From contig CAWGYL010000007.1 of the NCBI GenBank assembly GCA_963826885.1, positions 7,680-71,679 on the forward strand: 64,000 bases of DNA, read 5' to 3'. Position 1 is the stretch's first letter; every line of letters begins with the position of its first letter. Both the position numbers and the translations under genes were made by a program. This DNA is from Nitrospirota bacterium (GTDB lineage Bacteria > Nitrospirota > UBA9217). Shown one piece after another: positions 16,633 to 64,000 of this stretch. The notes below the pieces were generated by a model. It was not told the DNA's origin, searched no databases, and was given only the letters and a program-made list of their open reading frames with translations.

Positions 16633-17355
16633 TCAGATAACTGATTTCCATTCCAGGTCTCCCATCAGTGTAAATTGAACGAAATTCCTGATCCTGAGGC
16701 GGGTATCGTCCGGCATGCCGAGGAAGCGGAGACCCATCCCCGGTTCGGATTCGAGCTGAATGCCGAGTCGCAGGGTGCGGACAACTTCCGCGTCGAGTTC
16801 TATTGCCTCAGGATCATGGGGAAGCGTGAATTTGATGTGAAGGGACGTGCCGTCAGGAACTGGCGTCAGCGTGCGTAGGTAGAGACCACCCTCGGAAATA
16901 TCAATGCCAGCCAAGATTTTCTCGGGAGTTCCCTCGGCTATTTCCACCGGTACTTTCAGCGGGACACGGGGAGCCAATCTCGACTGCCCGCTTAACCGGC
17001 CCAGGACACCGTAAACAATGGCCAGATCGAGCGGTTTCGTCAGGATAGCAGAAACACCCTGGGAAAGCAGAGATTGGATCGTTTCTGGGTTGTCGTTTGT
17101 CATGAAGAGAACAAGCGGAGCGTTCTTGACCGAGGGGTCGGTCCTTAAAAGAGTGATCGAAGGCTGCAGCTCGAGTTCCGACGCCTCGCCATCGAAGAGT
17201 ATGAAGGAGAAAGGAGTTTGACCGGCCAATAGAACGCCTTCTTCAGCGGTCTTGGCCAGAACCGGCGAATACCAGATGCGGTTCAAGAGAACACCGAGAT
17301 ACATTTGCCCTGCGGCAGTGTGGCAGATTACCAGGGCCGGCTTTTTCTCAGACAT
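16633..17355 (-). CDS. receiver (REC)-like domain + PilZ domain protein
   Basis: PilZ c-di-GMP motifs 'RLAPR' (RxxxR) and 'DISEGG' (DxSxxG). N-terminal CheY-like fold 'ALVICHTAAG...ILFDGEAS'. Confidence 0.65.
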   Translation of the reverse strand: MSEKKPALVICHTAAGQMYLGVLLNRIWYSPVLAKTAEEGVLLAGQTPFSFILFDGEASELELQPSITLLRTDPSVKNAPLVLFMTNDNPETIQSLLSQGVSAILTKPLDLAIVYGVLGRLSGQSRLAPRVPLKVPVEIAEGTPEKILAGIDISEGGLYLRTLTPVPDGTSLHIKFTLPHDPEAIELDAEVVRTLRLGIQLESEPGMGLRFLGMPDDTRLRIRNFVQFTLMGDLEWKSVI

Positions 17356-17472
17356 CTGTTCCCCCCTTTTTGCTCCGGCATTCACCATGCGATTTAAAAA
17401 TTCACTTTGCCTTCAGCCACTGTTGTCTGCAGCTTATAAAGCATACAGCATCTAAATTGTCTACATCGTATG

Positions 17473-39444: not shown

Positions 39445-41661
39445 ATGTCCGACCAACAGGACAATATAAAGGCTCCCGCGCCGCCTTCTCTGCAGATCGA
39501 AAAGGAAATCCCCCTTGACACACGCCTGTTGTCCGAAGCCGTAATTGAGCTGAACATCTCGCGAAAGAATGTGGGGATTTATCCTCCCGGCCATATTCAG
39601 ATCACGAAAAGTATTGACCGGGCCTACGAGATTCTTCAAAAGCTGCTTGAAATCCGCGTTGAAATGACTTTTGGCGTTGCCAAGGACACACTCCTCGTGG
39701 GTCAGGACTACCTCGATCGGAAAAATCCCGTATACCGCGATTTTGCGCTCGCCTTGAACCAGCAGTCAATTGCATCGGTTACCTTTATCCGCGGCCTGGA
39801 AAAGAATGAACTTGTAGAATTTCACCGAATCATTACGACGAAGCCCGAGGACATCGTAGCCGCCGGTGGGATCAGCAAAGTCATGGGTGAGTCAGGCATT
39901 TCCCATGTCAGGATTCAGGCCATCGACTACGGGAGCTTCTATATAACGGAAGAGCAGGAAATATTCAAGTCGCAGGGCAAGGGAGGTCCGGGTGCCGGTA
40001 TTGGTACTGGTACTGGTACTGGTACTGGTACTGGTACTGGTATCGGTACCAATACCGGCACCGGCGAGACGGGCGCCAAACCCAAAGGCGGCCACGATCT
40101 GTGGCAGGAGTTCGTCACGCACCTTACGGCAGGCAGGCTTGCCACATCAGGGGAGGGTGTATCTTTAAAGGAAACGGAGCAAATCGACCCCGCCGAACTT
40201 GCGCGACTTCTGAACGAGCTCAGGCTCGATTCCAACGTTGCACTCCAGAGTTATGACCAGATCATTTCCGAGCATTTGCGCGTGGCGGCCGAGAAGAAGC
40301 AGCTTTCGCAGGAGCAGTCGAAAACCCTGTCGAACCTCAATATGCTGTTGAAAGATCTGCATCCCGAACTCCGTAAACAGTTTCTTTCCGTCGCCTTCCG
40401 ACGCATCTCCACCCATACGAAAGCTATGGGTGCGGAAGACCTTTTGGGCGGTTTTCCCGATGATATCGTGATTGACATGTTGAACCAGGCAAGCGCCGAA
40501 GGGAAGGAAATATCACCGACCCTGACAGGACTGCTTGGCAAGCTGACGCGGGCGCAAGCCCAGAGCGTGCAGTCTTCACCACTCGGCGAACGAGGAAAGG
40601 AGGGAGCGGGGGAGAAGGACCTCGCATCCTCTATTCTGCCTGAGCACATGGAAAAACTATTTGACCGCGAAAAATATGAGGAATATGTATCCGACGATTA
40701 CCAGGCAACACTCAAACGTTTGTCGGAAGCCTCTGGCGTCTTGGCTGAACGGATCCCCGTGGACGAATATGCGAAAACCCTCGAAGAGGATCATCTCGAT
40801 TTCCAGATAGGCCGGGCGCTCATTGCCTTTATGGAAGAAAATATTGATGAGGAGGATTACCGTGAATTTGGGCGCAAACTGGTCACGCTTGTACCCGAGT
40901 TTCTGAAAACCGGCAATTTTGTCCTTCTACTCGACATTCTTGAGACGATTCGCAAACAGGTGAGGGAAAAACCGACGGAGAACCTCCGAGCCATGGCGGC
41001 CGACTGTTTGAAAATATTCAGCGATCCATCGTTCATGGACCAGTCACGCCAGGCATTTGACGGATGGGCGAGTACAAAGGGACGGGAAGCCTCAAACTTC
41101 CTCTATGCGCTCGGACCGGCAATGATCCCCGGGCTGATGGATCTCTACGCAATCGACACAACGCCGGGCGGCCGGCGGGTCCTCTTCGATCTCCTCTGCC
41201 GGTTCGGACAGGATGCAGTGCGCGAAGCCATCAGGCGTTTGAGCGATCCCCGCATCCATTACGTACGAAACTTGGTGATGCTGATCCGTTGGGCCGGGAC
41301 GCCTGCTGCTATTTCGTCCATAAAATTCCTGCTGAATAAACAGAATGTAAAGGTGAGGATTGAAGTCCTGACGACACTGCTCAAGTTTAAAGATCCCGAG
41401 GCGCCGCAGCTTCTCCGTGAAACTATTCATTCTCAGGACCCTGATGTGGCTTCGCAGGCAGTATTTCTCGCTGGCCAGTTCCGCGTGACTGAGGCTGTGG
41501 ACGATCTTCTTTCCCTCATCAAGCGGATCATTTTCTTTGAAGCGGATTATACGGTGAATGAGGAAATCATAAAGGCGCTCGGTGAAATTGGAGATCCGCG
41601 GGCCATCGGCGACCTTGAAAGGCTTGCTCGCGCGCGGACTCTCATCCTCGGCGCCGGTTGA
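39445..41661 (+). CDS. large HEAT-repeat protein with an N-terminal domain homologous to the N-terminus of the adjacent HD-GYP protein and an internal (Gly-Thr)n linker
   Basis: 738 aa. N-terminal 'AVIELNISRKNVGIYPPGHIQITKSIDRAYEILQKLL...LLVGQDYL...VTFIRGLEKNELVEFHRII'. C-terminal HEAT/PBS-type repeats ('IKALGEIGDPRAIGDLERLA'). Confidence 0.6.
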   Translation: MSDQQDNIKAPAPPSLQIEKEIPLDTRLLSEAVIELNISRKNVGIYPPGHIQITKSIDRAYEILQKLLEIRVEMTFGVAKDTLLVGQDYLDRKNPVYRDFALALNQQSIASVTFIRGLEKNELVEFHRIITTKPEDIVAAGGISKVMGESGISHVRIQAIDYGSFYITEEQEIFKSQGKGGPGAGIGTGTGTGTGTGTGIGTNTGTGETGAKPKGGHDLWQEFVTHLTAGRLATSGEGVSLKETEQIDPAELARLLNELRLDSNVALQSYDQIISEHLRVAAEKKQLSQEQSKTLSNLNMLLKDLHPELRKQFLSVAFRRISTHTKAMGAEDLLGGFPDDIVIDMLNQASAEGKEISPTLTGLLGKLTRAQAQSVQSSPLGERGKEGAGEKDLASSILPEHMEKLFDREKYEEYVSDDYQATLKRLSEASGVLAERIPVDEYAKTLEEDHLDFQIGRALIAFMEENIDEEDYREFGRKLVTLVPEFLKTGNFVLLLDILETIRKQVREKPTENLRAMAADCLKIFSDPSFMDQSRQAFDGWASTKGREASNFLYALGPAMIPGLMDLYAIDTTPGGRRVLFDLLCRFGQDAVREAIRRLSDPRIHYVRNLVMLIRWAGTPAAISSIKFLLNKQNVKVRIEVLTTLLKFKDPEAPQLLRETIHSQDPDVASQAVFLAGQFRVTEAVDDLLSLIKRIIFFEADYTVNEEIIKALGEIGDPRAIGDLERLARARTLILGAG
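40003..40050 (+). repeat. in-frame hexanucleotide tandem repeat (GGTACT)x6 plus degenerate units encoding (Gly-Thr)n
   Basis: ggtactggtactggtactggtactggtactggtact ggtatc ggtacc. Flanked by further degenerate GGT-NNN units (39991-40062). Confidence 0.85.
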
Positions 41662-41822
41662 AAATGCAGCAGCAGCTTTTTGCATCCCTGGGCAGATATC
41701 CCGTCGAGAGCATAACAGGGCTCCTCCAGACAGGAGAGCGGTCCGGAGATGAAACCATCAGAAAGAGATGTAAAAAACTGATGGAGCGTAACAATCCGGA
41801 GCAAGAGCAGTCTTGACATCCT

Positions 41823-41848
41823 CCCCGGCCTGAAGGCCGGGGTTTTAC
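41823..41848 (+). terminator. rho-independent terminator after the HEAT-repeat gene
   Basis: CCCCGGCC-TGAAG-GCCGGGG followed by TTTTA. Confidence 0.55.
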
Positions 41849-41874
41849 GGTGCGGATGATAAAAGGTATATGTA

Positions 41875-43047
41875 ATGGTTGAACTCTATACGCAGAGCGA
41901 CTTGGTTGAGGTGATCTCTCAACTCACCGCCGCTGTGAAGAATACAACGCTCTATTCTCCAACCCATCCACAGGTGGCCCAGTACCTCGACAAGGCCTAT
42001 GATCTTCTCCAGGGGCTTCTGAAGAGCAAATCGGATATTACCCTTCTGCTCATTGGCGACGATCTGGTTGCGGACAACCGCTCTCTTCAGGCGGGAAGCG
42101 CTTACGTGATCAACTTTACGCGGATCTTGCGAACAAAAGCAGTTGAAAGGATTTCCTTTTTTCAAGGGGTTCAGAAAGAGGAGTTACAGGAGCTGATCAG
42201 GGATATGGCCTCGATGGAGGCCGCTTCGGTGCGTTCGAGCCAGTGCATCAAACTTGGCAAAGTCGAACTGAGGGTCGTCGCTGATACCGGCGCGGGAAGC
42301 GGTAGCAACACTGGCACAGCTGAAGAAGGTCTGCAGGAACTGCAGGCCCTCACGACAGCGGAAATCGATGAGCTTAAAGAAACCTATCTTGCGATTAAGA
42401 AACACCGGAAGATAGATGTTCGCGGCGTCGACGACATGGTAAAAGGATTCATCAAGGGATTCAGACAGGAAGTAAATCCGTTGAGTCTTCTGGCGACGTT
42501 GAAATCCGTCCACGAATATACCTTTACTCACGTAACGAATGTCTGCATCCTGACCATGGCGCAGGCGGAAAGCCTGGGCTTCAGCGGTGCGCATCTCCAT
42601 AGTATTGGGATCGCCTCGCTCCTCCATGACGTGGGCAAAATCTTTGTGCCAGTGGAAATCCTGTCTAAGCCCGGGGTACTTACGGCTGAGGAACGCAAAA
42701 TAATCGAGACGCATACGGTCAAGGGAGCCCGGTACTTGATGGGCATCGATGATATCCCGAAGCTGGCAATTCTGGCGGCCCTGGAGCACCATCGGAAGTT
42801 TGATGGCAGCGGGTATCCGACGATAAAAGGTGGGTGGACCCCGAATGTCACGAGCCAGATGATCTCCATTGCCGATGTATTCGATGCGATGAGAAGTAGC
42901 CGCACCTACCAGGGATCGATCCCGATCGAACGGATAGTAGATGTTCTTCGCAAGGGAAGCGGTATCTCGTTCAACCCGCAATTTGTCGATCACTTCCTGC
43001 GGCTCATTCGCTATAAGCCGCCGCAGCAGACAGGTCAAAGTTCATAA
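41875..43047 (+). CDS. HD-GYP domain c-di-GMP phosphodiesterase with N-terminal domain paralogous to that of the upstream gene
   Basis: 'LLHDVGKIFVP', 'HHRKFDGSGYP' (HD-GYP signature). N-terminal 'VISQLTAAVKNTTLYSPTHPQVAQYLDKAYDLLQGLL...LLIGDDLV...ISFFQGVQKEELQELIRDM'. Confidence 0.85.
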   Translation: MVELYTQSDLVEVISQLTAAVKNTTLYSPTHPQVAQYLDKAYDLLQGLLKSKSDITLLLIGDDLVADNRSLQAGSAYVINFTRILRTKAVERISFFQGVQKEELQELIRDMASMEAASVRSSQCIKLGKVELRVVADTGAGSGSNTGTAEEGLQELQALTTAEIDELKETYLAIKKHRKIDVRGVDDMVKGFIKGFRQEVNPLSLLATLKSVHEYTFTHVTNVCILTMAQAESLGFSGAHLHSIGIASLLHDVGKIFVPVEILSKPGVLTAEERKIIETHTVKGARYLMGIDDIPKLAILAALEHHRKFDGSGYPTIKGGWTPNVTSQMISIADVFDAMRSSRTYQGSIPIERIVDVLRKGSGISFNPQFVDHFLRLIRYKPPQQTGQSS

Positions 43048-43180
43048 AACAGAGCTCATAGTAAATTCTCCCTTATCATCTGCGCGGGAAGACCCCGTCT
43101 CTTCAGGGCAGTGAGGATGTCATTGACAGATCGAGAGTCTTTGGTTGGGAGTGCGAAGGGGGCGCGAGGGAAGGATGGGA

Positions 43181-44554
43181 TCACCACGCATAAACGATTT
43201 CCGCTTCCGCCTGATCGTTCCGTGAATACCTGCCGAAGACCGATTGCGCCGGACCGTTCAGGGTTATTGCCGTCACTCCGGCTTTCCAGGAATCGTTGAA
43301 GACGTATCCGGCTTTCACCGTCGTCATGTTGTCCCCGTGCTCGGGGTTATAGGCAACGTTCAGGTTTGTCTCGATTTTCTGGTTCATCCAGGTGATTTTG
43401 ACATTCGACCAGAGGAGGGTCTCAACCTTCCTCTCATACAGTAAGTCTACATTGCCGATAATGACGGTCTGCTGGGCCTGCACGGTCAGCATGGCGTCTT
43501 CGAACAACCGGTAATCCAGACCGATGCCGTAGTCCAAAGTGTCGTGTTCTTGCTCGATGGGATTCAACGGGTATGTGCCCGGTGCGAGTATGTTGGGATA
43601 CCCCCATAATTCCTGCCTGATATTGAGGTAGCGGTTGATCGCATATGCCCCTTCAGCCCTGATACTCAGGTCGCCAGTGACCGCGGCGGCATCCATGCCG
43701 ATGACGCTTATTTTGTGAAAGTCGGGCATATATCCCGGGTCGATAACGATTGTTCCTCCGCTCGGCACAATCGTAAGCACTGTTGTTTTGAACACCGGGT
43801 GCGGGTCATAACCATGGAACAGGTTTATCGTCCATTCTATGTCGCCCAAGTGTTTGACTCGGACGCCGACGTTGCTGTTGTTGATTTCCCGGCCGGGCAA
43901 GTCGGGTTCTTGAGGAACGATCACGGCGTTCGGGACTGCCTGGATGATTGTCGAAGCAAGTGATGATCCGTACCAGCGTTCATCTGGCATGGGCAAGCGG
44001 TAGGGAACGAGCACGGGTACCCAGACGGCTTCGGTAATCCAGTCTCCCCTGCTCAGTGTTGCGGAGAGCGAGGGAACGCCGATCTTCCGGTCTTCAAGCG
44101 GCTTTCTGAGGAAGCGGGTATAGTCCCAGGGATTTAAAAGGTCATTGGGAGGGAACTCGTCGAGCCTTCCCCAGGCAAAACGCTGGATTCCGGCCCGAAC
44201 GTCGAGATTGTCTGATGAATGGGTGATGTACAGTTCTTTGAACTCGACGTAAGGTGAGTTGCTCTGGTAGACTTCGTCGAAATTTTTTATGAGCGAATGA
44301 TCACGCGGTGGTAATTTTACGGTTCCATCCCATCCTCCCTCCAGCCAGGAGTGGAAGCGCCATGCTGAACCGTTCGCGTCGAGTTTCACCTGCCCGGCAA
44401 GGTCCGGATCTTCCTTGACGCTGTCGCTCTCCTGCCGCTCCACGCCGCGTGCGGTCAGGCTACCTGTGAAGGAGAGGGAATCATCGCCATGCGCAGGGGA
44501 AGTGCTGGAAAGAAGGAAGCAGATGAAAACGAAGGATATCCGCCGCTTGAACAA
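43181..44554 (-). CDS. putative outer-membrane beta-barrel protein (signal peptide, C-terminal aromatic residue)
   Basis: Signal peptide 'MFKRRISFVFICFLLSSTSPAHG'. Alternating beta-strand-like pattern. Ends '...AEIVYAW'. Last gene of the ABC exporter operon. Confidence 0.45.
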   Translation of the reverse strand: MFKRRISFVFICFLLSSTSPAHGDDSLSFTGSLTARGVERQESDSVKEDPDLAGQVKLDANGSAWRFHSWLEGGWDGTVKLPPRDHSLIKNFDEVYQSNSPYVEFKELYITHSSDNLDVRAGIQRFAWGRLDEFPPNDLLNPWDYTRFLRKPLEDRKIGVPSLSATLSRGDWITEAVWVPVLVPYRLPMPDERWYGSSLASTIIQAVPNAVIVPQEPDLPGREINNSNVGVRVKHLGDIEWTINLFHGYDPHPVFKTTVLTIVPSGGTIVIDPGYMPDFHKISVIGMDAAAVTGDLSIRAEGAYAINRYLNIRQELWGYPNILAPGTYPLNPIEQEHDTLDYGIGLDYRLFEDAMLTVQAQQTVIIGNVDLLYERKVETLLWSNVKITWMNQKIETNLNVAYNPEHGDNMTTVKAGYVFNDSWKAGVTAITLNGPAQSVFGRYSRNDQAEAEIVYAW

Positions 44555-44587
44555 GTGAGGCCCCCTTCATTCCAAATGCAGCGCTAA

Positions 44588-45262
44588 TCAGTATTTTCTG
44601 ACGATAGCCTCGATTAACGATTTGACGGTCGGATCGACATCGGTGAACCTGATCCCGTAATGAAAGACATCGGGGACCTTTACCCGCGGGACGGCGCGTG
44701 CGATTTCACCATAGCCGCTTGCATGCGTTCCATCGGGGAGAAAGAAGGAGAAGAAGATTTCGTCGCCTACGGCAAGCGGTTCTTCAGCCTTGATGAGCAT
44801 GCCGCTTGCACTGATATCTTTCGTCCAGAACGGTAGCGGCCTGTCTTTGAACCGCCCTTGAATCGCGACGGCAAGCGCGGCCCGATAGGCCATTCTCGGC
44901 GCGACATGAAGGAATTGTTGGGCCTTGATGTGGATCAGGGTGGGGTCAACGGGCATGGGAAAAACCGCGTTGGCGCTGCACTGCCTGGATCGCTCCCGGT
45001 GGGCGAGAGTGTCTCTGCAGACAATGATGGTTGAGACCCGCTTCAATGCCTGGCTTTCCCTGATGGCGCTGAAGAGCTCTTCGCTCCGGATGCCGGGCAT
45101 GTCGAGCTGTGTGATGATGAGGTCAGCTTTGTGCTCCCGGTGGATTTTCAACACCTCGTCGTTCGTTGTCGCAGTGAGTACGATAATGTCCCTGCGATCA
45201 AGGAACGTCTTCTTCTCTGCAAAAAGATATTTCAGATCCTCCGCAATCACGATGTAATTCAT
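44588..45262 (-). CDS. response-regulator receiver + PilZ domain protein
   Basis: REC 'HKADLIITQLDMPGIRSEELF'. PilZ 'RMAYR' (RxxxR) and 'DISASG' (DxSxxG). Confidence 0.7.
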   Translation of the reverse strand: MNYIVIAEDLKYLFAEKKTFLDRRDIIVLTATTNDEVLKIHREHKADLIITQLDMPGIRSEELFSAIRESQALKRVSTIIVCRDTLAHRERSRQCSANAVFPMPVDPTLIHIKAQQFLHVAPRMAYRAALAVAIQGRFKDRPLPFWTKDISASGMLIKAEEPLAVGDEIFFSFFLPDGTHASGYGEIARAVPRVKVPDVFHYGIRFTDVDPTVKSLIEAIVRKY

Positions 45263-45411
45263 CCGTCTGCCTCGCCCTTTCTGTTAAACGGGGGAAGTGT
45301 AAGATCCTGGTGAAACAGCACCGCCGTATCCGCTCATAATCAGAGCCTGTATGAACAATACTAATACCAAGAATAGCATACCATAATAATAAATAATTTC
45401 ATCAAAAAAAA

Positions 45412-46233
45412 CTACCTTCCCGCCCGCTCCAGCGAACGCTGCGTGAAAAGATCATCGCTGAAATGGGTATGGTACTGGATGTTACCGATGGTCAGTTCCG
45501 TCCGATGACCGGTCCTTTTGTTCTCCATGTCGATCCGGAAGGGCGTGGGAATAGCGTCGATGACTCTCACGTCCTGGAAAACGCCGGAGCGGTAGATGTC
45601 ATTGTCCTGGTAATACTCAATCTTGAGATGAATCCACCAGTCTTTCGCCACCCAGGCGATGTATTTCGTATATTTCCGGCGGATTTTTGGCGTTACTTCT
45701 ATAACGTAGCAGGGTTTGCCGTCGATGACTTCCTCTTTTTCGATACTGAATTTGTAGTCGTCCAGATTCGGCGGGCCGCCGAAGTCGTCATAAGAAAAAT
45801 CCGATCCGAAAAACGAGTCGTCCTGGGAGCTTGTGGCGATGCGGCGGACGCGCTTGTATTCGGGGAAGTAGGCCCAGAGATCGCGCTCCGCGAAGGTATG
45901 CGCGTGAATGAGGAACCCGACGTTTTTCAAATCCGGAGGTGAATTGAAAATAACGAGCACCTTGTATGCTTCGGGGTCGGCCTTCTTGCTGTATTCGGTG
46001 AGCGTCCTCATCCGTTTACCCCCGCCTTTGTCAAAAAGGACCATCGTCGCTTCGGTCTTCCGATCGAGGGATTTGGAGCGCACTTCATGTACCTTTTCGT
46101 ACACCTCGCGGCCGGAGAGGGCTAAGGATGATGAGACAGAGGAAAAAAGACAGAAGATGGAGCACAGCGCGCAGACAAAGAAGTGAGACCCTATTCTGAA
46201 CTTTAAACGTTGAACGAGAAACTCGTTATTCAT
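45412..46233 (-). CDS. LolA-like outer-membrane lipoprotein-sorting-family protein
   Basis: Signal peptide 'FFVCALCSIFCLFSSVSSSLA'. LolA-like fold region 'MVLFDKGGGKRMRTLTEYSKK...WAYFPEYKRVRRI'. Start overlaps the permease stop by 8 nt. The ORF call extends to 46347. Confidence 0.55.
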   Translation of the reverse strand: MNNEFLVQRLKFRIGSHFFVCALCSIFCLFSSVSSSLALSGREVYEKVHEVRSKSLDRKTEATMVLFDKGGGKRMRTLTEYSKKADPEAYKVLVIFNSPPDLKNVGFLIHAHTFAERDLWAYFPEYKRVRRIATSSQDDSFFGSDFSYDDFGGPPNLDDYKFSIEKEEVIDGKPCYVIEVTPKIRRKYTKYIAWVAKDWWIHLKIEYYQDNDIYRSGVFQDVRVIDAIPTPFRIDMENKRTGHRTELTIGNIQYHTHFSDDLFTQRSLERAGR

Positions 46234-48820
46234 AGGAAAGTGCCTCCACGATGTTGGTCTTTGCCGCTCTTCGTGCGGGGTAGACGCCGGCCAGGGCCGC
46301 GAGCAGCGTCGAAAGAGCCAGTGCCCAGAAAAGGGAAGAATAGTCAACGTGGTATTGCATGCTCGCGCCGTAGTCGCCGCGGAGAAAGCCCTCGAGACTC
46401 ATCCAGCCGATTGCTATGCCGGCGCAGATGCCGAGGGCTCCGCCGATCAGGCCGAGGAGCATGGATTCGAAAACAACTACGCGCGAAACCTGGCTCCGCA
46501 GCATGCCGATGGAGCGGAGGATGCCAATCTCCCGCGTGCGCTCGAGCACCGACGCAAGCAACGTGACCACAATGCCGAGGCAGGCAATCAGGAGGGTAAT
46601 AAGGTTGACGGCGTTGTTCACGGAAAATCCACGGTCGATGACTTTTCGAATTTCATCCTTGAACTCGCGGGCCGGGAGCACGAACAGTTTTCGGTCGTTG
46701 CCGAATCGTCTTGCGATTTCGTCCCGGACTGTTTCGACATTGGCGGTTGGCTTGATTTTTACGGAGAAGGAATCAGCGAGGTACTCCTTCCAATACCGGC
46801 GATAGGTGTGAACGTCCATGAGGATCGATCCGGAGTCGGAACTGTAGTCGACGTTGATGACGGCAACCCTGAAGTTCACCAAGCCTTCCGGCGTTGGCAA
46901 TGTCAGCGTATCTCCCGGTTTGAGATGTTCCTGGGCGGCGAGCGCTTCGTTCACCGCAATATAATCCTGATTCGGCAACAGCCGCGCCATGTCTTCTCGT
47001 GTCCCCCGTGCTATCTTGAAGGGGCTATAGGTGAGCCGCCGCGTGATGTCGAGCGTGAGGAGAAGGATGCGCCTCCCGTGATAATCGATGTATATCTTCC
47101 GGAATGGATCAGCGGACAGGACGCCGGGGACATTCTCGACATCTTTCCACATCTCTGAGGGCATCGGGATATTCTGCGAACCTGTAGTAGCGATGGGGTG
47201 GCCGGACGTTATGATGATGTCCCCCCGCACGTAGGAGTCAATCCAATCCATGACTGAACGTTTGGTGCTGTGAATGATTCCCGCGGAACTGACAAACACA
47301 GAGATGCCATAGAAGATGGCGGCCGCCGCCACCGCGTTTCGCGTGATATTCTTTGCGAGGTTCAGTCCCGCGAGTCTCCCCGCCGCGCCCAGATGAGGCG
47401 CGATGATCCTTCGAAAGACGGCAAGAAACCCCTGCAGAACCGACGGCATGGCAAGGGACATGCCGAGGAGCAGCGAAATGGAGGCCGCAAACATGGTCGC
47501 TGTGGTATGGAAAAGCGCCGACTCGCCGGAAAGTTGAAAGAACGCCAGGAGTATGATCGACAGTGACATGAGCGACACTGAAGCGATCTTCAGCCTTCTT
47601 CCGGAAAGAAATCCTTCTTCCGAATAGGGAACGGAGCGAATGGCCGAAATCGGCGTAATGCGCGTGCTCGTCAGCGCCGGGAAGAGCGCGGCGGCAAGGC
47701 TTGCGGCGATGCCGGCCAGAAAACCGCGTGCAAGATCGGTCCACGACACCACTATGCCGCTGACCGATGTTCTGACATACAGCTCCGATACTGACTGGCC
47801 CACCGTCCCGAGCGCCGACCGGGCAAAGAAGATGCCGACGAACAGGCCCAGTCCGGAGCCGATCACGGACATAACGAAGGTCTCACTCAGGAAGAGCGCA
47901 ATGATCTGACCACGTGTCGTGCCGAGGGCGCGCAGGATTCCGATCTCTTTTCTTCGCTGGACAACGGATATGGAGACGGCGTTATAAATAAGATACATCC
48001 CCACGAACACGGCGATGAAACTGATAAGGTTGATATTTTTCTGGAAGTGGGAGACGAGGGATTCTATCTGCCTGGTCCTGCCTTCCGGCGTTACCACGTT
48101 GTAGCCTTCCGGGAGTGTTTTCCGGATACGCTCGCGTACGGCATCGAGACCCTCGTTCTTGAGAAGGCTTACATCGATCCGGTCGATCCGGCCTTCTTTG
48201 CCAAATGCCATTTGCGCCGCCGGATAGTCCATGACGGCAATGTTGCCGGACGCAACTTTCGCCGGCCCTTCAGGATTCAGAAGCCCCCGCACTCGGAAGG
48301 TCCTGATGCCGCGCACGGTTTGGACCTGTATCGTCTGGTCGAGTTTGATGCCTTCCCGGTCAGCCAGTTCCCGGGTCAGGAGGATCGAGTCGGGGCGCGC
48401 AAGGAACAGGAGCGGATCTGGTATGTCGGCGTTCTCGTCCGAAAGCTTGTATTCGCGGATATTGCTGTCTTGAAGCACATCGACACCCAGGATCATAAGC
48501 GATTGTTCCTTGGCGCCCACGAGGATTCCCTGGGTGTCGATCACCGGAACGGCGTACTCCACGCCGGGAACGTTCTGCACGCGTTCGATCATGCTCTCGG
48601 GAAAGCCAGACGCGGCTCCGGTAACCTGGAGCACCGCACGTCCTGTCACGCGATTGATCGTGTCTTCGAAAGAACGCAACACGCTCTTGTTCACGATGCC
48701 TATTGAGATAATCGCGGCCACCCCGAGACAGATGCCTGTCACGGTCATGACCGATTGAACCTTCTGGAGCCGGATGCGCCTGATACTGATATGTTTGAGT
48801 AAATTGAGCAGGTTCATCAT
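46226..48820 (-). CDS. ABC transporter permease with two FtsX/MacB-like modules (YbbP/LolE-like)
   Basis: 864 aa. Two repeats of periplasmic domain + 4TM FtsX domain ('EIGILRALGTTRGQI', 'EIGILRSIGMLRSQV'). Confidence 0.8.
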   Translation of the reverse strand: MMNLLNLLKHISIRRIRLQKVQSVMTVTGICLGVAAIISIGIVNKSVLRSFEDTINRVTGRAVLQVTGAASGFPESMIERVQNVPGVEYAVPVIDTQGILVGAKEQSLMILGVDVLQDSNIREYKLSDENADIPDPLLFLARPDSILLTRELADREGIKLDQTIQVQTVRGIRTFRVRGLLNPEGPAKVASGNIAVMDYPAAQMAFGKEGRIDRIDVSLLKNEGLDAVRERIRKTLPEGYNVVTPEGRTRQIESLVSHFQKNINLISFIAVFVGMYLIYNAVSISVVQRRKEIGILRALGTTRGQIIALFLSETFVMSVIGSGLGLFVGIFFARSALGTVGQSVSELYVRTSVSGIVVSWTDLARGFLAGIAASLAAALFPALTSTRITPISAIRSVPYSEEGFLSGRRLKIASVSLMSLSIILLAFFQLSGESALFHTTATMFAASISLLLGMSLAMPSVLQGFLAVFRRIIAPHLGAAGRLAGLNLAKNITRNAVAAAAIFYGISVFVSSAGIIHSTKRSVMDWIDSYVRGDIIITSGHPIATTGSQNIPMPSEMWKDVENVPGVLSADPFRKIYIDYHGRRILLLTLDITRRLTYSPFKIARGTREDMARLLPNQDYIAVNEALAAQEHLKPGDTLTLPTPEGLVNFRVAVINVDYSSDSGSILMDVHTYRRYWKEYLADSFSVKIKPTANVETVRDEIARRFGNDRKLFVLPAREFKDEIRKVIDRGFSVNNAVNLITLLIACLGIVVTLLASVLERTREIGILRSIGMLRSQVSRVVVFESMLLGLIGGALGICAGIAIGWMSLEGFLRGDYGASMQYHVDYSSLFWALALSTLLAALAGVYPARRAAKTNIVEALSYE

Positions 48821-48938
48821 GACCCGAATACTCTTAAAAAACAGAAGACTGGTGTTTGTTTAGCTTCAACGATGCGCTAAATTCGCAAAATTGTCTATCA
48901 TGTAGTCCGCCCTTTTTGTGCCTTTTGCGCAAAAACGG

Positions 48939-49634
48939 TCATATGCATATTGCACTGTCCTCGGCAATGCAGCCGTCTTTGAGTATAATGCTGCGGGTTC
49001 CGAAGGATGCTGCTTTGGGGTCATGGGTCACCATCACGAGGGTCTGTCCCTCCGCATGAAGGCTTTTCAGCAGGTTGAGTATGTCCGTGCTCGTATGCGA
49101 GTCCAGGTTTCCCGTGGGTTCGTCCGCCAGCAGCACGGTGGGGTTGGTGACCAGCGCCCGGGCGATGGCTACACGCTGCATCTCGCCGCCGGAGAGCTGC
49201 TCGGGACGATGATCGGTACGGCCTGAGAGGCCGACCTTCCGCAGCAGGGATTCCGCCGTGGGTTTGACTTTTGAGAAGGGAATGCCTTCGAGCAAGAGAG
49301 GGAGCCCCACGTTTTCCGCGGCGGTGAGGATGGGCAGGAGGTTGAAGAACTGGAAAATGAATCCCACGCGCCTGCGGCGGAGCAGCGTGAGTTCGTCATC
49401 GGAGATGCCGTGGAGCGGCATGTTATCGATGTACACCTCGCCGTGGGTGGGCCGGTCCAGTCCGCCGATGAGGTTCAGGAGTGTGCTTTTGCCCGACCCG
49501 GACGCCCCCATGACGGAGAGAAACTCACCGGCCTTGATGACGAGAGTAATGTCCCGGAGAGCCCGGATCTCTCTCGCACCGTGCAGATAGGTTCTACTTA
49601 CATTTTTCAATTCGATCATTGTTGCCTCATGCAT
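48939..49634 (-). CDS. ABC transporter ATP-binding protein (LolD/MacB-ATPase-like)
   Basis: 'GASGSGKST' Walker A. '[15 protein letters not shown]' signature. '[11 protein letters not shown]' Walker B. Confidence 0.9.
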
Positions 49635-49790
49635 ATTTTAGTAGCACTGAGCCGTGTTGTAAAGTTGTTTCTTGAGAAGGGGACCTCCTTTCTGATAAAA
49701 AAATCCTTTTCCAAAAAAGGGGGGGAATATGATACTATAAACCCTACGGATAGGGCATTATAATTTTTTATTACGCGGGGAGGTAACGAT

Positions 49791-50366
49791 ATGAAGGTCA
49801 TAGCATTCAACGGAAGCGCGCGAAAAGAGGGGAACACGTCGATCCTTTTAAACCTCGTCCTTGATGAACTGAAGGCGGAGGGAATCGAAGCGGAGGTCTA
49901 TCCGCTCGCGGGAAAAGCGGTCCAGGGGTGCATCGCCTGCTTTAAGTGCTTTGAAAAGAAGAACATGCGCTGCAATGTTGAGAAAGACATCATCAATGAA
50001 TGTATACAGAAGATGATCGAGGCGGACGGCATCATTCTGGGTTCGCCGACTTACTTTGCTGATGTGACCGCGAATATGAAGGCCCTTATTGAGCGGTGCG
50101 GCATGGTTGGGCGGGCGAACGACGGATTGTACAAGCGCAAAGTGGGCGCGGCTGTCGTGGCGGTCAGGCGGGCCGGCGGCATTCATGTTTTTAACTCCCT
50201 TAATTATTTTTTTTCGATCAATGAGATGGTCATCCCGGGCTCAAGCTACTGGAACCTGGGCATCGGGCGCCAACCGGGCGAGGTGAACAATGACGCCGAA
50301 GGCGTTCAGACCATGAAGACCCTGGGCAAAAACATGGCGTGGTTGATGAAGAAGATCAAGGCATAG
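49791..50366 (+). CDS. flavodoxin-like NADPH-dependent FMN reductase / iron-sulfur flavoprotein-like protein
   Basis: 'MKVIAFNGSARKEGNTS'. Cys cluster 'CIACFKCFEKKNMRC'. 'GSPTYF'. Confidence 0.65.
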   Translation: MKVIAFNGSARKEGNTSILLNLVLDELKAEGIEAEVYPLAGKAVQGCIACFKCFEKKNMRCNVEKDIINECIQKMIEADGIILGSPTYFADVTANMKALIERCGMVGRANDGLYKRKVGAAVVAVRRAGGIHVFNSLNYFFSINEMVIPGSSYWNLGIGRQPGEVNNDAEGVQTMKTLGKNMAWLMKKIKA

Positions 50367-50450
50367 GCTCCTGCTCGGCCTTACCCGATTCGTCTGATTG
50401 CAGGAAAAATTCTGTTCGTAGCCGGTTCTTTTCGAAAGGATTTTGTCCCG

Positions 50451-52238
50451 GTGTTCACAAGAACTTTTCTCAAACTCCGCTCGTCTATGAGCCTGAAGAT
50501 TGCGCTGATCGTTTCGGTACCGGTCGCGCTGATCAGTTTCACGATTTTTTATGTCTATCAGGTGCATGAACGGGAGATCCTGTTCCGGAACACCGCCACG
50601 CACCTGTTGCGCATGGCCGATGATATGAAGAATCCTGTCGAGACCTTCCTGAGATCGCAGGATTATGGCGGGATACAGAAACTGGTCGACCAGACGGCCC
50701 GGGGAACGGATGTCAAGATTGTTGCGCTATTCAACAGCTCCGGCAACGTGACTGCCAGCAGTGAAAATAAATACAGGGAAAAAAGCCTTTACGATATGCG
50801 GTCTGATGAATTCAACAGACAGGACATCGCGGCGATCCAGAAAGGGTTAAACGGAGGCTACTCGCAATACTATGACCCCGAGGATGAGCAGTACTGTATG
50901 GTTAGTCCGATTTTCAGCGGCGGAAAAACAGACGCGATGTTGTTCTGCGCGGATGTTACCTCGGTGAAAACCGCGCTTCAGGAAGAGTCTGATTTGAATA
51001 TGGGTCTTGTTTCAGGGGTCGCACTTGTTCTCGGAGCTTCCATCTACTTCTTGTTTTACAAGCTGTTTACAAAGAGGATCCAATCGATCTCGTCGGCCGC
51101 AGTCAAACTCGCGGCTGGCGACATAACAGTAAAGGCCGAAGCAGGCGGGATCGATGAGATCGGCCATCTGGCGACTTCCTTCAATGCCCTTGCCGACGAA
51201 ATAACTGACCGGCGCGCCAATCTTGAAGAGATCACGGCGAGCCGGGTGAAGGAGCTGACAGCTCTCTTTGCCGTAGTCGAAACCATAAGCCAGTCCCTGG
51301 ACCTAACAAAGGTACTGCCGAATGTTCTTGGCTGTGTGCTTGATAATTTCAGCGCAAGCAAAGGAGTTGTCGTACTCGTTGACCGCGATGACAAAATGCT
51401 GAGGCTGGCGGGGCACCGGGGCTTGTCGGAGGTAAGCCTCAGCAAGATCGTTTCTGATGGACAGGGCTGCACCGGAGATGTGATCCTAATGAAGAAGCCC
51501 ATCAGAGTGTCCGGCGATGAGGAAGGGGAGGGATCTGTCCCCGGCCTCGAAAAGGACGAAATTCGGTCGGCTTTGGTGGTGCCGATATCAGTCCGGGGAG
51601 AGGTCCTCGGCGCTTTCGGTGTGTACAGTGCGAAAAAAGACCGGTTTACGGAAAAAGACGAAGCCCTGCTCATGGCGATCGGCAGCCAGACAGGCGTTGC
51701 CGTGGAGAACGCGCGGCTCTACGAACAGACGCTTGATCTTGCACGGATGGACGGACTGACCTGCATGTTCAACCGGCGTCACCTGATGGAGCGTCTGGCT
51801 CAGGAAATTGATCGCGCAGAGCGCTACCAGAATTCACTCTCACTCATGATTCTGGACATGGATAAATTCAAGTCCTTTAATGATGCCTATGGCCATATCA
51901 AGGGCGACGAACTGCTGAAAGCATTTTCCTCCATACTAAAAGACACGGTCCGGACATCCGATATTGCCGGCCGGTACGGAGGAGAGGAATTCTGCGTTGT
52001 GCTCCCGAATACGTCGATCAAGGGCGCTGCACTCATAGCCGAGCGCATCAGAAAGGCTGTGGAGGGATTAACAATACCCATGGCCGAAGGCCAGCCAGCG
52101 GCGGGTCGGACCGTAAGCGTCGGCGTGACAGAATTTTCCTCGGGAGATTCGCTGGAAAAGCTGCTTGCTGCTGCTGATGCCGCGCTCTACCGCGCCAAGG
52201 ACGGCGGAAGAAACCGTGTGGAGATTTCCAAAGATTAG
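50451..52238 (+). CDS. sensor diguanylate cyclase (TM-HAMP-GAF-GGDEF)
   Basis: 'RYGGEEF' active site. 'LTCMFNRRHL'. GAF region 'VLVDRDDKMLRLAGHRGL'. N-terminal TM 'IALIVSVPVALISFTIFYVY'. Confidence 0.85.
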   Translation: MFTRTFLKLRSSMSLKIALIVSVPVALISFTIFYVYQVHEREILFRNTATHLLRMADDMKNPVETFLRSQDYGGIQKLVDQTARGTDVKIVALFNSSGNVTASSENKYREKSLYDMRSDEFNRQDIAAIQKGLNGGYSQYYDPEDEQYCMVSPIFSGGKTDAMLFCADVTSVKTALQEESDLNMGLVSGVALVLGASIYFLFYKLFTKRIQSISSAAVKLAAGDITVKAEAGGIDEIGHLATSFNALADEITDRRANLEEITASRVKELTALFAVVETISQSLDLTKVLPNVLGCVLDNFSASKGVVVLVDRDDKMLRLAGHRGLSEVSLSKIVSDGQGCTGDVILMKKPIRVSGDEEGEGSVPGLEKDEIRSALVVPISVRGEVLGAFGVYSAKKDRFTEKDEALLMAIGSQTGVAVENARLYEQTLDLARMDGLTCMFNRRHLMERLAQEIDRAERYQNSLSLMILDMDKFKSFNDAYGHIKGDELLKAFSSILKDTVRTSDIAGRYGGEEFCVVLPNTSIKGAALIAERIRKAVEGLTIPMAEGQPAAGRTVSVGVTEFSSGDSLEKLLAAADAALYRAKDGGRNRVEISKD

Positions 52239-52528
52239 AAGGATGCTGATAGAGAATTGAGGAGGCATCCTGAACGAAGTGAAAGATGCCGTATCTGGAA
52301 AAGCGGAATTCATCGCTGAGATCAGCATGACCATGCATCCTGCCTGCGAGACCAACGAACTGACAGGACGGGCTTTCTGATGTCTCCTATTCGCAGTTCA
52401 TTTCTCCCTTTCCCCGCCGCGTGAAGGTTCACTATCCTGATCAGGCCCTTTAATTGATGTATGATCGATCATGTGTGGGGCACTTCCATACTCAAGAGAA
52501 ACATGAATTACCCCTCCAGTCTTTCTGA

Positions 52529-52558
52529 TTGACACTTCTGGAAATTATCTGGTATAGT
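52529..52558 (+). promoter_or_regulatory. sigma70-type promoter of the trp operon
   Basis: TTGACA (52529-34), 18-nt spacer, TATAGT (52553-58). AAGGAG RBS 52575-80, 8 nt before the trpE ATG. Confidence 0.55.
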
Positions 52559-52588
52559 ACGTAAATCGCTTATTTTGCAAGGAGTTTT

Positions 52589-54076
52589 ATGTTCCAGCCG
52601 TCTCTGGAAGAATTCAAACAAAAAGCAAAAAAAGGTAATCTGATTCCCGTATACCGCGAGATTCTAGCAGACCGGGAAACACCCGTATCGGCATTCCAAA
52701 AGATCGACGACGGACGGCATTCCTTCCTGCTCGAAAGCATGGAAGGCGGCGAGAAATGGGCCCGTTATTCCTTTTTAGGAAGCAGACCGTCGGTCATTGT
52801 CAGGACCTTTGGCCGAATGGCCGAGATCGTCCGGAGCGGCAAGACTGCAAAGATTGCATTTGAACGGGATCCCCTCGAGGTGATCAAAAAGGTCCTGTCC
52901 GAATACCGGCCGGTACCTGATCCATCACTGCCACGGTTTTTCGGCGGTGCTGTAGGATTCATGGGCTATGATGTTGTCCGTTTTTTTGAAGAACTGCCCG
53001 GGCGGGAGAAAGCGGGTTTGGACACTCCCGACATTTTTTTCATGATAACCGACACGCTCGTGGTTTTCGACAACGTGACCCATATGATCAAGGTGGTGTC
53101 GAATGCCCATGTCAAGGGAAGGTCCGTCGAAGCCGCGTATCGGGAAGCCGTAAAGAAGATCAACAACCTGGTCAGGAAACTGAAAGCCGGGATCAAGGTT
53201 CAGGCGTCAAGGGGCAGGGGAAAATCGAAGTCAAAAAATCATACGCTGACGTCGAACTTTGCCCAGCCGCAGTATGAACAGGCGGTGCTCAAGGCAAAAG
53301 AATATATCAAGGCGGGTGATATTTTCCAGGTAGTTCCGTCCCAGCGATTCCAGACGAAGATCTCCGTAGAACCATATGAAATCTATCGCGCTCTCCGTCT
53401 GATCAATCCGTCGCCGTATATGTATTTTCTCCGGTGCGGCGATACAACCGTTGTCGGCGCTTCCCCCGAGGTGATGGTAAGGCTCGAAGGAAACCGGATC
53501 GATCTTCGCCCAATAGCGGGCACGCGACGTCGCGGGGCTGACGAGGAAGAGGATAAGGCGCTTGCCGAGGAGCTTCTCGCGGACCCCAAGGAGCGGGCTG
53601 AGCACATCATGCTTGTGGACCTGGGGCGGAATGACGTGGGAAGGGTGAGCGAGCCGGGAAGCGTGAATGTAAGCGAACTCATGGTAATTGAGCGCTACTC
53701 GCATGTTATGCATATCGTGTCGAATGTGCTCGGCAGATTATCTGCGGAAAACGACGCCTATGACGTCATTCGGGCCTGTTTTCCCGCCGGCACAGTATCA
53801 GGCGCTCCGAAGATCAGGGCCATGCAAATCATTGACGAACTGGAGCCCACGAAGCGCGGGCCTTACGCAGGCGCCGTCGGATATTTCGGATTTTCCGGAA
53901 ACATGGACACTTGCATCACCATACGGACGCTTGTGATCAAAAACAACGTGGCCTATATCCAGGCCGGTGGAGGTGTGGTCGCGGACAGCGATCCTGCCGC
54001 GGAATACCAGGAAACGGTGAACAAGGCCACGGCCATGATGCGAGCCGTGGAGATGGCGGAGAAGGGGCTGGATTAA
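52589..54076 (+). CDS. trpE: anthranilate synthase component I
   Basis: 495 aa. 'LLESMEGGEKWARYSF', 'IAGTRRRG', 'GAVGYFGFSGNMDTCITIRT'. Confidence 0.92.
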   Translation: MFQPSLEEFKQKAKKGNLIPVYREILADRETPVSAFQKIDDGRHSFLLESMEGGEKWARYSFLGSRPSVIVRTFGRMAEIVRSGKTAKIAFERDPLEVIKKVLSEYRPVPDPSLPRFFGGAVGFMGYDVVRFFEELPGREKAGLDTPDIFFMITDTLVVFDNVTHMIKVVSNAHVKGRSVEAAYREAVKKINNLVRKLKAGIKVQASRGRGKSKSKNHTLTSNFAQPQYEQAVLKAKEYIKAGDIFQVVPSQRFQTKISVEPYEIYRALRLINPSPYMYFLRCGDTTVVGASPEVMVRLEGNRIDLRPIAGTRRRGADEEEDKALAEELLADPKERAEHIMLVDLGRNDVGRVSEPGSVNVSELMVIERYSHVMHIVSNVLGRLSAENDAYDVIRACFPAGTVSGAPKIRAMQIIDELEPTKRGPYAGAVGYFGFSGNMDTCITIRTLVIKNNVAYIQAGGGVVADSDPAAEYQETVNKATAMMRAVEMAEKGLD

Positions 54077-54198
54077 ACGATAGATCAGAGTTCAGAGTGG
54101 AAGGCACAAAAAGGGAAATACCACTGCTGGTTTGAACTCTTTTTTCCCTGAACTGTGAACCCTGAACGTAGAACTGAATTTGACGTATAGAGGTTCTC

Positions 54199-54762
54199 AT
54201 GTTATTAATGATTGACAATTACGATTCCTTCACCTACAACCTGGTCCAGTACTTTGGAGAGCTGGGCCAGGACCTGAAGGTGTACCGGAACAACAAAATC
54301 ACGATCGCCGAGATCGAGAAAATGAATCCCGACCGTATTGTGATTTCGCCCGGGCCGTGTACGCCGAAAGAGGCGGGAATTTCCATCGAAGTGATCAGGC
54401 ATTTTACCGGGAAAATGCCAATTCTTGGGGTCTGCCTGGGACATCAGTCCATCGGAGAAGCCTTCGGGGGGGATGTAATTCGCGCGCCCTACCTTATGCA
54501 CGGCAAGACGTCGATGATTCATCACGACGGCAGGACCATCTTCGCAGGTCTTCCTAATCCCTTCGAAGCTACAAGGTACCACTCGCTCATCATCAAGCGG
54601 GAAACAATGCCGGCGGTCCTCGAAATATCCGCCTGGACCGACGATGGCGTAGTCATGGGTGTACGCCACAAGCAGCATAAGCTCGAGGGTGTGCAGTTCC
54701 ATCCCGAGTCTATCCTGACGGGAGTGGGAAAAAATTTGCTCAAGAATTTTTTGAAGCTGTGA
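54199..54762 (+). CDS. trpG: anthranilate synthase component II (glutamine amidotransferase)
   Basis: '[18 protein letters not shown]', '[10 protein letters not shown]', 'GVQFHPES'. Confidence 0.9.
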
Positions 54763-54925
54763 TGATTAACCAAGGATAAACACGGGTGCGGTTGCGCCGC
54801 ACTCACGGATTCGATTTCAATGGTTTCAGCCAAATAATGCATTATCCCCGAGGCGGAGCCTGTTTTGAACAAAGCTCTCATGGTTTTAGTCGTTCTTCGG
54901 TAAATGTGCTGACCGCGAGGTACCG

Positions 54926-55939: not shown

Positions 55940-55985
55940 GGTCAAGGGGCAAGCAGCAGGGAACGGCACTGCGAAAATTCTCTTT

Positions 55986-56765
55986 ATGATTTTAGACGAC
56001 ATCATTGCTAACAAGAAAGGGGAACTTGCGGCAACAAAGCGCCGGTCCTCCTTATCCGATATAAAAGCCCGGGCAGCTGATGCCGGGCCGACAAGAGGTT
56101 TTGGAAAGGCTCTTTCCACGGGAACCGGGATTCACCTCATCGCGGAAATGAAGAAAGCTTCACCCTCGAAAGGCGTGATCCGCGAGGACTTCGATCCAGT
56201 CAAGATCGCGCGCGTATACGAGGAGTCGGGAGCATCCTGCCTGTCCGTGCTCACTGAGAAGAAGTTCTTTCAGGGTGAACTGGAGTACCTCGGCATGATC
56301 CGGAAGGCCGTGGGACTGCCGCTTCTTCGAAAGGACTTTATTATCGATGAGTACCAGATATTTGAAGCGAAGGCCGCAGGTGCTGATGCGATGCTGCTGA
56401 TTGCTGCCTGCCTGGAAAAACAGCAGATGGTCGACTTTCTTGGTATCGCGGACGGACAGGGACTCGATGTCCTGGTGGAGTCCCATACGTACAAGGAGCT
56501 GGACAAGTCTCTTCTCGCGGGAGCGATGCTCGTGGGGATAAACAATCGCGATCTCGCGACTTTTAACGTGAACTTGCAGACAACGATCGATCTTTTAAAG
56601 GATATTCCTGACGACCGGATCGTCGTGAGCGAGAGCGGCATCAAAACCCGGGATGACGTGATTATGCTCGAAAAAGCGGGTTTGGATGCGATTCTCGTTG
56701 GTGAGAGCCTGATGCAGGAAAAAGACATCGGGAAAAAAACGAAAGAACTTCTGGGAAAAAGTTAA
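55986..56765 (+). CDS. trpC: indole-3-glycerol phosphate synthase
   Basis: 'LIAEMKKASPSKG', 'LSVLTEKKFFQG', 'GINNRDL'. Confidence 0.9.
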   Translation: MILDDIIANKKGELAATKRRSSLSDIKARAADAGPTRGFGKALSTGTGIHLIAEMKKASPSKGVIREDFDPVKIARVYEESGASCLSVLTEKKFFQGELEYLGMIRKAVGLPLLRKDFIIDEYQIFEAKAAGADAMLLIAACLEKQQMVDFLGIADGQGLDVLVESHTYKELDKSLLAGAMLVGINNRDLATFNVNLQTTIDLLKDIPDDRIVVSESGIKTRDDVIMLEKAGLDAILVGESLMQEKDIGKKTKELLGKS

Positions 56766-63982: not shown

Positions 63983-64000
63983 AACATGATGGTCTCGTAT

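Follow-up and report, generated by a model that had tools for sequence, protein, structure and literature searches.

A putative c-di-GMP effector gene lodged in a conserved MacB/FtsX-type envelope transporter locus of Nitrospirota

A 64,000-nucleotide stretch of a Nitrospirota genome (assembly GCA_963826885.1, contig CAWGYL010000007.1, positions 7,680 to 71,679; the window hereafter) carries on its minus strand, in this order, genes for an ATP-binding cassette (ABC) ATPase, a double-FtsX permease, a LolA-like protein, a protein with receiver (REC) and PilZ domains and an outer-membrane protein (OMP). The presence of a putative receptor for cyclic di-GMP (c-di-GMP) among the genes of a predicted envelope exporter raises the question of whether this protein, REC-PilZ, is part of the export system or the product of a separate gene lodged within it. 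An earlier inspection of the DNA, the sequence-only reading, took the five genes for one operon in which export would be under the dual control of c-di-GMP and phosphorylation. Analysis of the open reading frames (ORFs) and of Pfam and NCBIfam matches confirmed the five genes, with the positions, order and domains it had given, as well as the two c-di-GMP motifs of REC-PilZ, RMAYR (R123-R127) and DISASG (D149-G154). The permease and LolA-like genes overlap at their junction, and the other junctions are looser and uneven, with 118 nt between the ATPase and permease genes, an AT-rich spacer of 149 nt between the LolA-like and REC-PilZ genes and 33 nt between the REC-PilZ and OMP genes. As developed below, we consider it likely that the locus combines a conserved exporter of hydrophobic cargo with a separable, lineage-specific gene for a stand-alone c-di-GMP effector that was relocated into it.

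The conservation of the locus was analysed by an OMP-centred, alignment-based scan of one genome per species, in which the ORFs of the 80 loci obtained were searched with the proteins of the window. The OMP had more than 400 close relatives, and the 80 loci span Nitrospirota, Geobacterales, Syntrophales/Smithella, Desulfobulbales, Desulfarculales and a few others. The LolA-like gene was found upstream of the OMP gene and on the same strand in 70 loci, the two genes being at most 150 nt apart in 53, and the ATPase, permease, LolA-like and OMP genes were all visible in 57. A REC-PilZ homologue was detected in none of the 80 by phmmer (E<=1e-5), and hidden Markov models (HMMs) of the REC-PilZ family and of its PilZ domain alone (E<=1) gave no match in them either, with all positive controls recovered. 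A MacB/LolCDE-type ATPase, a fused double FtsX permease, a LolA-like carrier and a DUF1302 OMP therefore form a widely conserved module to which REC-PilZ does not belong in these loci. The sequence-only reading had suggested this check of gene neighbourhoods and had itself named the absence of REC-PilZ from homologous operons, the outcome obtained here, as one that would refute its proposal. Co-occurrence of the PilZ gene with the transporter was not seen across lineages and was confined to a clade with at least 73% REC-PilZ identity. No experimental study of the four-gene module was found in the literature searched.

In Nitrospirota, insertions of variable content occur at the junction of the LolA-like gene with the OMP gene. 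Junctions of more than 600 nt were seen in 12 loci, nine of them from Nitrospirota, and contained 0.8-6 kb of unrelated genes, including those for an alpha/beta hydrolase, a lactonase-like propeller protein with repeats, Ig-like secreted proteins, an ExbBD/TonB-dependent receptor set, a histidine kinase and a metallo-beta-lactamase. It is at this same junction that the window has its REC-PilZ gene.

Other variations of the module were observed among the loci. In one of them (L027:4909-9045), genes for ExbB-, ExbD- and TonB-like proteins and a Plug-domain receptor lie between the LolA-like and OMP genes; the 814-aa protein of this insert was compared with Pfam and matched CarbopepD_reg_2 and Plug. 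Two or three tandem genes for 864-aa double permeases precede a single LolA-like and a single OMP gene in L035:3923-9101, L037:428-8947 and L052:1036-8919. An orphan DUF1302 gene lies beside HD-GYP and HEAT genes in L020:9977-11371 and L021:9929-11362, without ATPase, permease or LolA-like genes in about 10 kb upstream, and in L020 a further HD-GYP/HEAT pair and a fragment of an OMP were seen as well.

The distribution of REC-PilZ itself was followed through the gene contexts of its orthologues; a metagenome scan using an alignment of the protein returned only 24 loci, mostly on short contigs. Relatives at least 73% identical to the REC-PilZ of the window (L007/L091 and L090, 88%; L009, 73%) are the only ones in which the gene separates the LolA-like gene from the OMP gene, and they have in common the synteny of trp operon, FMN reductase, exporter, HD-GYP and HEAT. 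Orthologues with 67% identity or less were found in at least 10 other, unrelated gene contexts: divergent from genes for a paralogous ABC ATPase and an 869-aa FtsX permease, upstream of FtsH, between a Fer4_5 gene and a hybrid kinase gene, after genes for SmpB and a dienelactone hydrolase, and between a GcvT-like gene and a P-type ATPase gene, among others. A recurrent association of REC-PilZ with FtsX-type ABC genes was rejected as a general rule, as no such genes were present in four further contexts.

The right end of the window (trpF through accD) is colinear with locus L005, with 78-93% protein identity; a few kilobases past accD, L005, L006 and L115 have the REC-PilZ gene after a Fer4_5 gene. 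Two other sequences run past the end of the window, L117 (99.98% identical to 58578-64000) and L116 (99.44% identical to 52308-63999), and both show DUF362, Fer4_5 and unrelated genes past accD, with no REC-PilZ detected by HMM at the Fer4_5 slot. Because this slot is empty in sequences nearly identical to the window, the simplest reading is that the gene was relocated by about 20 kb into the exporter junction; duplication, with the original copy retained after Fer4_5 and an additional one in the operon, was discarded for that site for the same reason, although a copy might lie elsewhere in the genome. When the LolA-to-OMP junctions of 12 relatives were compared, no recognisable target-site duplication or remnant was found at the insertion point.

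The fate of the exporter in locus L008 is also informative about the relation between both. The REC-PilZ of L008 is 74% identical to that of the window, was found on 14 contigs and is intact at 225 aa. The exporter of the same locus (L008:9398-12004) has lost its ATPase and permease genes by deletion, keeps only fragments of the LolA-like gene and has an OMP gene broken by frameshifts into four pieces; beside these remains, the HD-GYP and HEAT genes are still intact. For REC-PilZ, the ratio of nonsynonymous to synonymous substitution rates (dN/dS) was 0.08-0.22 for every pair of sequences compared, the pairs with L008 among them.

The REC-PilZ gene appears to bring its own promoter, since a nearly invariant element is found upstream of it in the clade and sigma70-like hexamers precede its orthologues. 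The promoter-like element lies in the 149-nt spacer and includes TGGTATGCT, which resembles an extended -10; over 32-45 nt it is nearly identical in the window, L007, L090 and L009, whose REC-PilZ proteins differ by 12-27%. In orthologues from other contexts, the sigma70-like hexamers are located about 110-130 nt upstream of the ATG. A scan for consensus promoters and terminators gave the counts expected from shuffled sequences and did not flag the spacer element.

The residues of the receiver domain were analysed through HMMER alignments to three solved receivers from the PDB, in which Gln52 aligned with the phospho-acceptor Asp. Among 121 family members this column holds Q in 95, R in 8, K in 6, L in 4 and E in 4, and D in none. 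The equivalent of the conserved Thr is Cys82 (Cys in 115 of the 121), and position 103, equivalent to the conserved Lys, is Met in the window protein and M, I, L, T or V across the family, never K. Two residues after the acceptor position, residue 54 (D54 here) is D or E in all the members. The domain is thus, as judged from its residues, a pseudo-receiver that would not be phosphorylatable at the canonical site in any of the 121 members aligned. An AlphaFold2 (AF2) model built on 119 sequences had a mean predicted local distance difference test (pLDDT) score of 80.9, and of about 90 over residues 1-120, showing a confident (beta-alpha)5 domain, a PilZ barrel and a low-confidence segment (122-139) that contains the RxxxR motif. 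Foldseek matched the N-terminal domain to the receivers Spo0F, DivK, CheY, ArcA and PorX with target TM-scores of 0.7-0.8, and found no structure resembling the full-length protein.

The PilZ domain has kept its ligand motifs. Its match to PF07238 scored 45.1 bits against a gathering cut-off of 22.5; R123 and R127 are present in 121 of the 121 members, position 149 is N or D in 121, S151 is found in 120 and G154 in 121. REC-PilZ most likely binds c-di-GMP through this domain and, because the receiver residues are lost, the CheY-like fold is kept and the PilZ motifs are invariant or nearly so, the protein has the appearance of a c-di-GMP-binding protein whose receiver-fold module is not phosphorylatable. 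The family search gave 342 matches, and the 120 of them that were listed are all at least 59% identical. All the residues invariant in the family are unchanged in the in-operon clade.

PilZ domains and receivers are combined also in PixA of Myxococcus xanthus, a single protein with c-di-GMP motifs whose orphan gene has no adjacent kinase gene (PMC8316039); however, PixA has its PilZ domain at the N-terminus and, at the C-terminus, a receiver with a phosphorylatable Asp180, whereas REC-PilZ has the opposite order and lacks the Asp, Thr and Lys.

The transporter genes were analysed for their domains. The ATPase translation shows a Walker A (GASGSGKST), a signature (LSGGE) and a Walker B (LLADEPT) motif, and its best NCBIfam matches are to MacB, LolD, DarD and FtsE types, each below the equivalog cut-off. 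Its true start is probably the ATG at 49619, as homologues align from residue 6. In the permease, Pfam detected FtsX (2e-39) and MacB_PCD, the MacB periplasmic core domain (8e-30), in two stretches apiece, and its sequence matches in the PDB were MacB, LolF, LolE, LolC and YtrF. The components of a type VII (MacB/FtsX) ABC transporter are all present, namely an FtsX unit, a MacB periplasmic core domain and an ABC_tran domain encoded by the adjoining gene. The ATG of the LolA-like gene at 46233 overlaps the permease stop codon (ATGAATAA), as the sequence-only reading had noted. The LolA-like protein has a signal peptide without a lipobox, the latter judged by eye. Its second Pfam match is DUF1329 (4e-9, 36.6 bits), it matched the PDB entries 9tp6 (3e-35), 4z48 and 3bk5, and no NCBIfam model matched it. 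Domain content, gene order, the translational coupling of the permease and LolA-like genes and the wide conservation of the exporter are all direct observations.

The assignment of the OMP to DUF1302 (PF06980) is only just above the gathering cut-off of 23.2, and the same match was obtained with 22 of 24 aligned relatives. Its gene has a TTG start preceded by GAAGGGGG; the protein begins with a signal peptide and ends in a Trp, W457, that does not vary among the relatives. The low-confidence AF2 model from the 24-sequence alignment (pLDDT 55.5) consists almost entirely of beta-hairpins, and no relative was found in a search of PDB sequences with the OMP profile. Public gene calls of this OMP (43181-44554) give a product of either 457 aa or 420 aa; the shorter calls are probably truncated, as the TTG start of the 457-aa form yields the signal peptide.

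No stable fold was obtained for the 118-nt spacer that separates the ATPase gene from the permease gene (z=0.08), and its conservation is confined to the closest relatives. A perfect 12-nt palindrome, TTTTGCGCAAAA, was observed in it at 48924-48935, directly past the ATPase stop codon; it is kept only in the closest relatives, and its predicted RNA fold is no better than that of shuffled sequence. An Rfam scan of 42900-50500 (E<=1) detected no RNA family and no c-di-GMP riboswitch.

The above data can be brought together in a working model. Two copies of the MacB/LolD-type ATPase would act with one fused double FtsX permease and, as is established for the Lol pathway and other transporters of the type VII ABC superfamily, movements of the periplasmic domains would be powered by cytoplasmic ATP hydrolysis. 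These would extract a hydrophobic cargo (a lipid, a lipid-linked molecule or a lipoprotein) from the outer face of the inner membrane, and the cargo would be passed to the soluble LolA-like carrier and then delivered to the DUF1302 barrel; we infer the direction of transport, the cargo and the hand-off steps from those systems. REC-PilZ would have reached the LolA-like/OMP junction by relocation, and this only in one narrow clade of Nitrospirota; its pseudo-receiver would most likely serve as an interaction surface for a protein partner not specific to this operon. In this clade, the promoter-like element of REC-PilZ would probably also drive the downstream OMP gene.

Several points weigh against this model. 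The in-operon position has been kept across the clade with synonymous divergence of up to about 0.9, and this stability, together with the 33-nt spacing, makes co-expression of REC-PilZ and the OMP likely and some coupling possible. Genes for FtsX-type permeases are found near REC-PilZ in two other contexts (L001 and L003/L004). An HD-GYP orthologue lies beside the OMP gene in 20 of 29 Nitrospirota loci, versus none of 47 loci from Geobacterales and other Desulfobacterota; in Nitrospirota an operon of HEAT and HD-GYP genes, often with a REC-GGDEF gene that the window lacks, is convergent with the OMP gene. Finally, the structural model of the OMP is poor, as indicated by its pLDDT.

One alternative is a recruitment specific to the clade, in which the pseudo-receiver-PilZ protein would have become a c-di-GMP-dependent regulator of the exporter in these Nitrospirota, either through contact with the cytoplasmic side of the ATPase or permease or by placing OMP expression under the REC-PilZ promoter. 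The stable position next to the OMP gene, the FtsX-type ABC genes of L001 and L003/L004 and the recurrence of HD-GYP and GGDEF genes as exporter neighbours in Nitrospirota would fit such a role. However, the gene is absent from all 80 homologous operons, it remained intact and under purifying selection after exporter loss in L008, the four further contexts have no FtsX or ABC genes, and the unchanged family-invariant residues give no sign of neofunctionalisation in the clade, so that we regard recruitment as unlikely. The more specific version in which the adaptor was captured as a c-di-GMP-dependent gate of a type VII ABC/LolA-like/DUF1302 envelope lipid exporter seems to us similarly improbable; if true, control of a MacB-type mechanotransmission transporter by a PilZ protein would be seen here for the first time, and the export of lipids or lipoproteins to the outer membrane would be connected with the adjoining HD-GYP and GGDEF signalling genes.

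Sensing of c-di-GMP by PilZ domains is linked to envelope export in the BcsA cellulose synthase and the Alg44 alginate co-polymerase. In these systems the PilZ domain is fused to the secretion machine or always co-encoded with it, in contrast to the PilZ gene described here, which is missing from 80 of 80 homologous operons.

A different question is whether the four transporter genes are simply the canonical lipoprotein-sorting system, LolCDE-LolA. The likeness is clear, as both have a type VII ABC transporter (MacB_PCD plus FtsX, with a LolD-like ATPase) and a carrier of the LolA superfamily; the best NCBIfam matches include LolD and lolCE, and the permease matches LolC, LolE and LolF chains. 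Nevertheless, the LolD match reached 229.1 against an equivalog cut-off of 307.75 and that to lolCE 151.5 against 362.45, with LolC, LolE and related models far below theirs. The permease is one fused double unit, there is no LolB in the module, where the outer-membrane partner is a dedicated DUF1302 barrel, and some genomes have lost the system entirely. The carrier belongs to PF17131 (LolA3-like) and not to canonical LolA, and among proteins of solved structure it is closest in sequence to LolA3 of Porphyromonas gingivalis (PDB 9TP6, E=3e-35). LolA3 has a hydrophobic groove and a sheet that is larger than in LolA; it is reported not to pair with LolB, and a separate function has been suggested for it (PMC13103446). 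A canonical Lol system is therefore an unlikely identification. Weakest of all, the integration of histidine-kinase phosphorylation with c-di-GMP binding in the control of export, as proposed in the sequence-only reading, could invoke the Pfam receiver domain with its CheY-like fold and the hybrid histidine kinase gene downstream of REC-PilZ in L005 and L115, but is highly improbable given the family-wide replacement of Asp, Thr and Lys (here by Gln, Cys and Met) and an embedding that is not conserved.

Further parallels to the exporter are found in other clusters. Those of the AmeABCD type and the DUF1302/DUF1329/BNR/RND (resistance-nodulation-division, HAE3) clusters, the latter known from Castellaniella, Pseudomonas, Shewanella and Delftia ('nanopod' cluster), likewise combine a DUF1302 OMP and a LolA-superfamily protein with an inner-membrane energiser, and the substrates proposed for their export are hydrophobic compounds or a component of the cell envelope (PMC6394551; bioRxiv 10.1101/072470). 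The energiser in them is a proton-driven RND/MMPL pump, whereas here it is an ATP-driven ABC transporter of the MacB type; no RND (HAE3/MMPL) or BNR/Ycf48-like gene is present within 43181-49634, and the carrier is best matched by PF17131 and not by DUF1329. The Borrelia BBJ23-29 cluster is predicted to encode a MacB-like ABC transporter, a LolA-like protein and an Omp85 protein, and thus differs in its outer-membrane component, of the Omp85 family instead of DUF1302, and in its permease, which is homodimeric there and fused here. The novelty of the locus is therefore modest, consisting of an ABC-driven variant of known DUF1302/LolA-type envelope systems together with an uncharacterised pseudo-receiver-PilZ family.

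The coordinates of the genes and of the promoter-like element are collected in Table 1.

Table 1. Positions in the window of the transporter locus, its neighbours and a further PilZ gene.
Feature	Coordinates	Strand	Basis or remark
ABC ATPase, MacB/LolD/FtsE type	48939..49634	minus	ABC_tran 1.4e-34 (Pfam)
Fused double permease, 864 aa, two MacB_PCD + FtsX units	46226..48820	minus	Pfam
LolA-like periplasmic carrier	45412..46233 (ORF 45412-46347)	minus	PF17131 8e-53
Promoter-like element (TTGATGAAAT...TTATTATGGTATGCTA)	45374..45405	minus	In 149-nt spacer, about 112 nt upstream of REC-PilZ ATG
Pseudo-receiver + PilZ protein (REC-PilZ), 224 aa, putative c-di-GMP effector	44588..45262	minus	Response_reg 37.2 bits, PilZ 45.1 bits
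Outer-membrane protein, DUF1302 family, 457 aa	43181..44554	minus	PF06980 24.8 bits
HD-GYP-type phosphodiesterase	41875..43047	plus	HD_5 1e-22; HD and GYP motifs visible in translation
HEAT-repeat protein, upstream of HD-GYP gene	39445..41661	plus	HEAT_2 3e-16
FMN reductase, divergent from ATPase gene	49791..50366	plus	FMN_red 4e-32
HAMP-GAF-GGDEF diguanylate cyclase	50451..52238	plus	GGDEF 1e-48
Separate PilZ-domain protein, downstream of M20 peptidase gene	16633..17388	minus	PilZ 1.3e-13

Three of the four c-di-GMP genes of the window are located within 41.8-52.3 kb, a further point in favour of coupling, and the flanking HD-GYP and GGDEF genes reported by the sequence-only reading were both verified by Pfam. 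The HD-GYP gene is convergent with the OMP gene. The HEAT gene accompanies the HD-GYP gene in L007-L010, L012 and other loci, as part of a Nitrospirota synteny block, and the FMN reductase gene, which adjoins the ATPase gene in several Nitrospirota loci, also serves as a synteny marker. The HAMP-GAF-GGDEF gene is present in L090 and absent from that position in L007, L008 and L009, so it is not a conserved neighbour. The gene that had been described as a second REC-PilZ paralogue at 16633-17355 does encode a PilZ domain near an M20 peptidase, but Pfam detected no receiver in it and BLASTP against the operon protein gave E=0.011 over only 28 aa; it was therefore rejected as a close paralogue.

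Some further features of the window were recorded. The HEAT and HD-GYP proteins (39445-43047) have N-terminal segments that look alike by eye, LSEAVIELNISRKNVGIYPPGH... and LVEVISQLTAAVKNTTLYSPTH..., and the HEAT-repeat protein contains a Gly-Thr/Gly-Ile low-complexity tract, GAGIGTGTGTGTGTGTGIGTNTGTG, encoded at about 39990-40080. The G+C content is 0.41-0.47 over 28001-34000, compared to about 0.53 elsewhere; this stretch, which holds a single-domain receiver gene (29532-29903) and a 435-aa ORF (31277-32584), may be a foreign island. After the trp operon, at 59671-63074 (L116:7365-10768), there is a cyclic-nucleotide trio encoding a protein that binds cyclic nucleoside monophosphates, a 628-aa protein with CHASE2 and guanylate/adenylate cyclase domains and a PDEase_II/Apyc1-like phosphodiesterase of metallo-beta-lactamase fold. 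The CHASE2 cyclase is not present in the colinear L005.

The embedded receptor is thus best explained by gene relocation and should not be taken as a principle of regulatory design. Its family is strongly conserved over hundreds of metagenomic sequences; with c-di-GMP motifs that do not vary and phosphorylation residues that are missing throughout, it offers a clean candidate for a c-di-GMP adaptor. The transporter module, for its part, is widely conserved in anaerobic Nitrospirota and Desulfobacterota and resembles an ATP-driven counterpart of the RND-driven DUF1302/DUF1329 clusters, so that the cargo of one of these systems would inform about that of the other.

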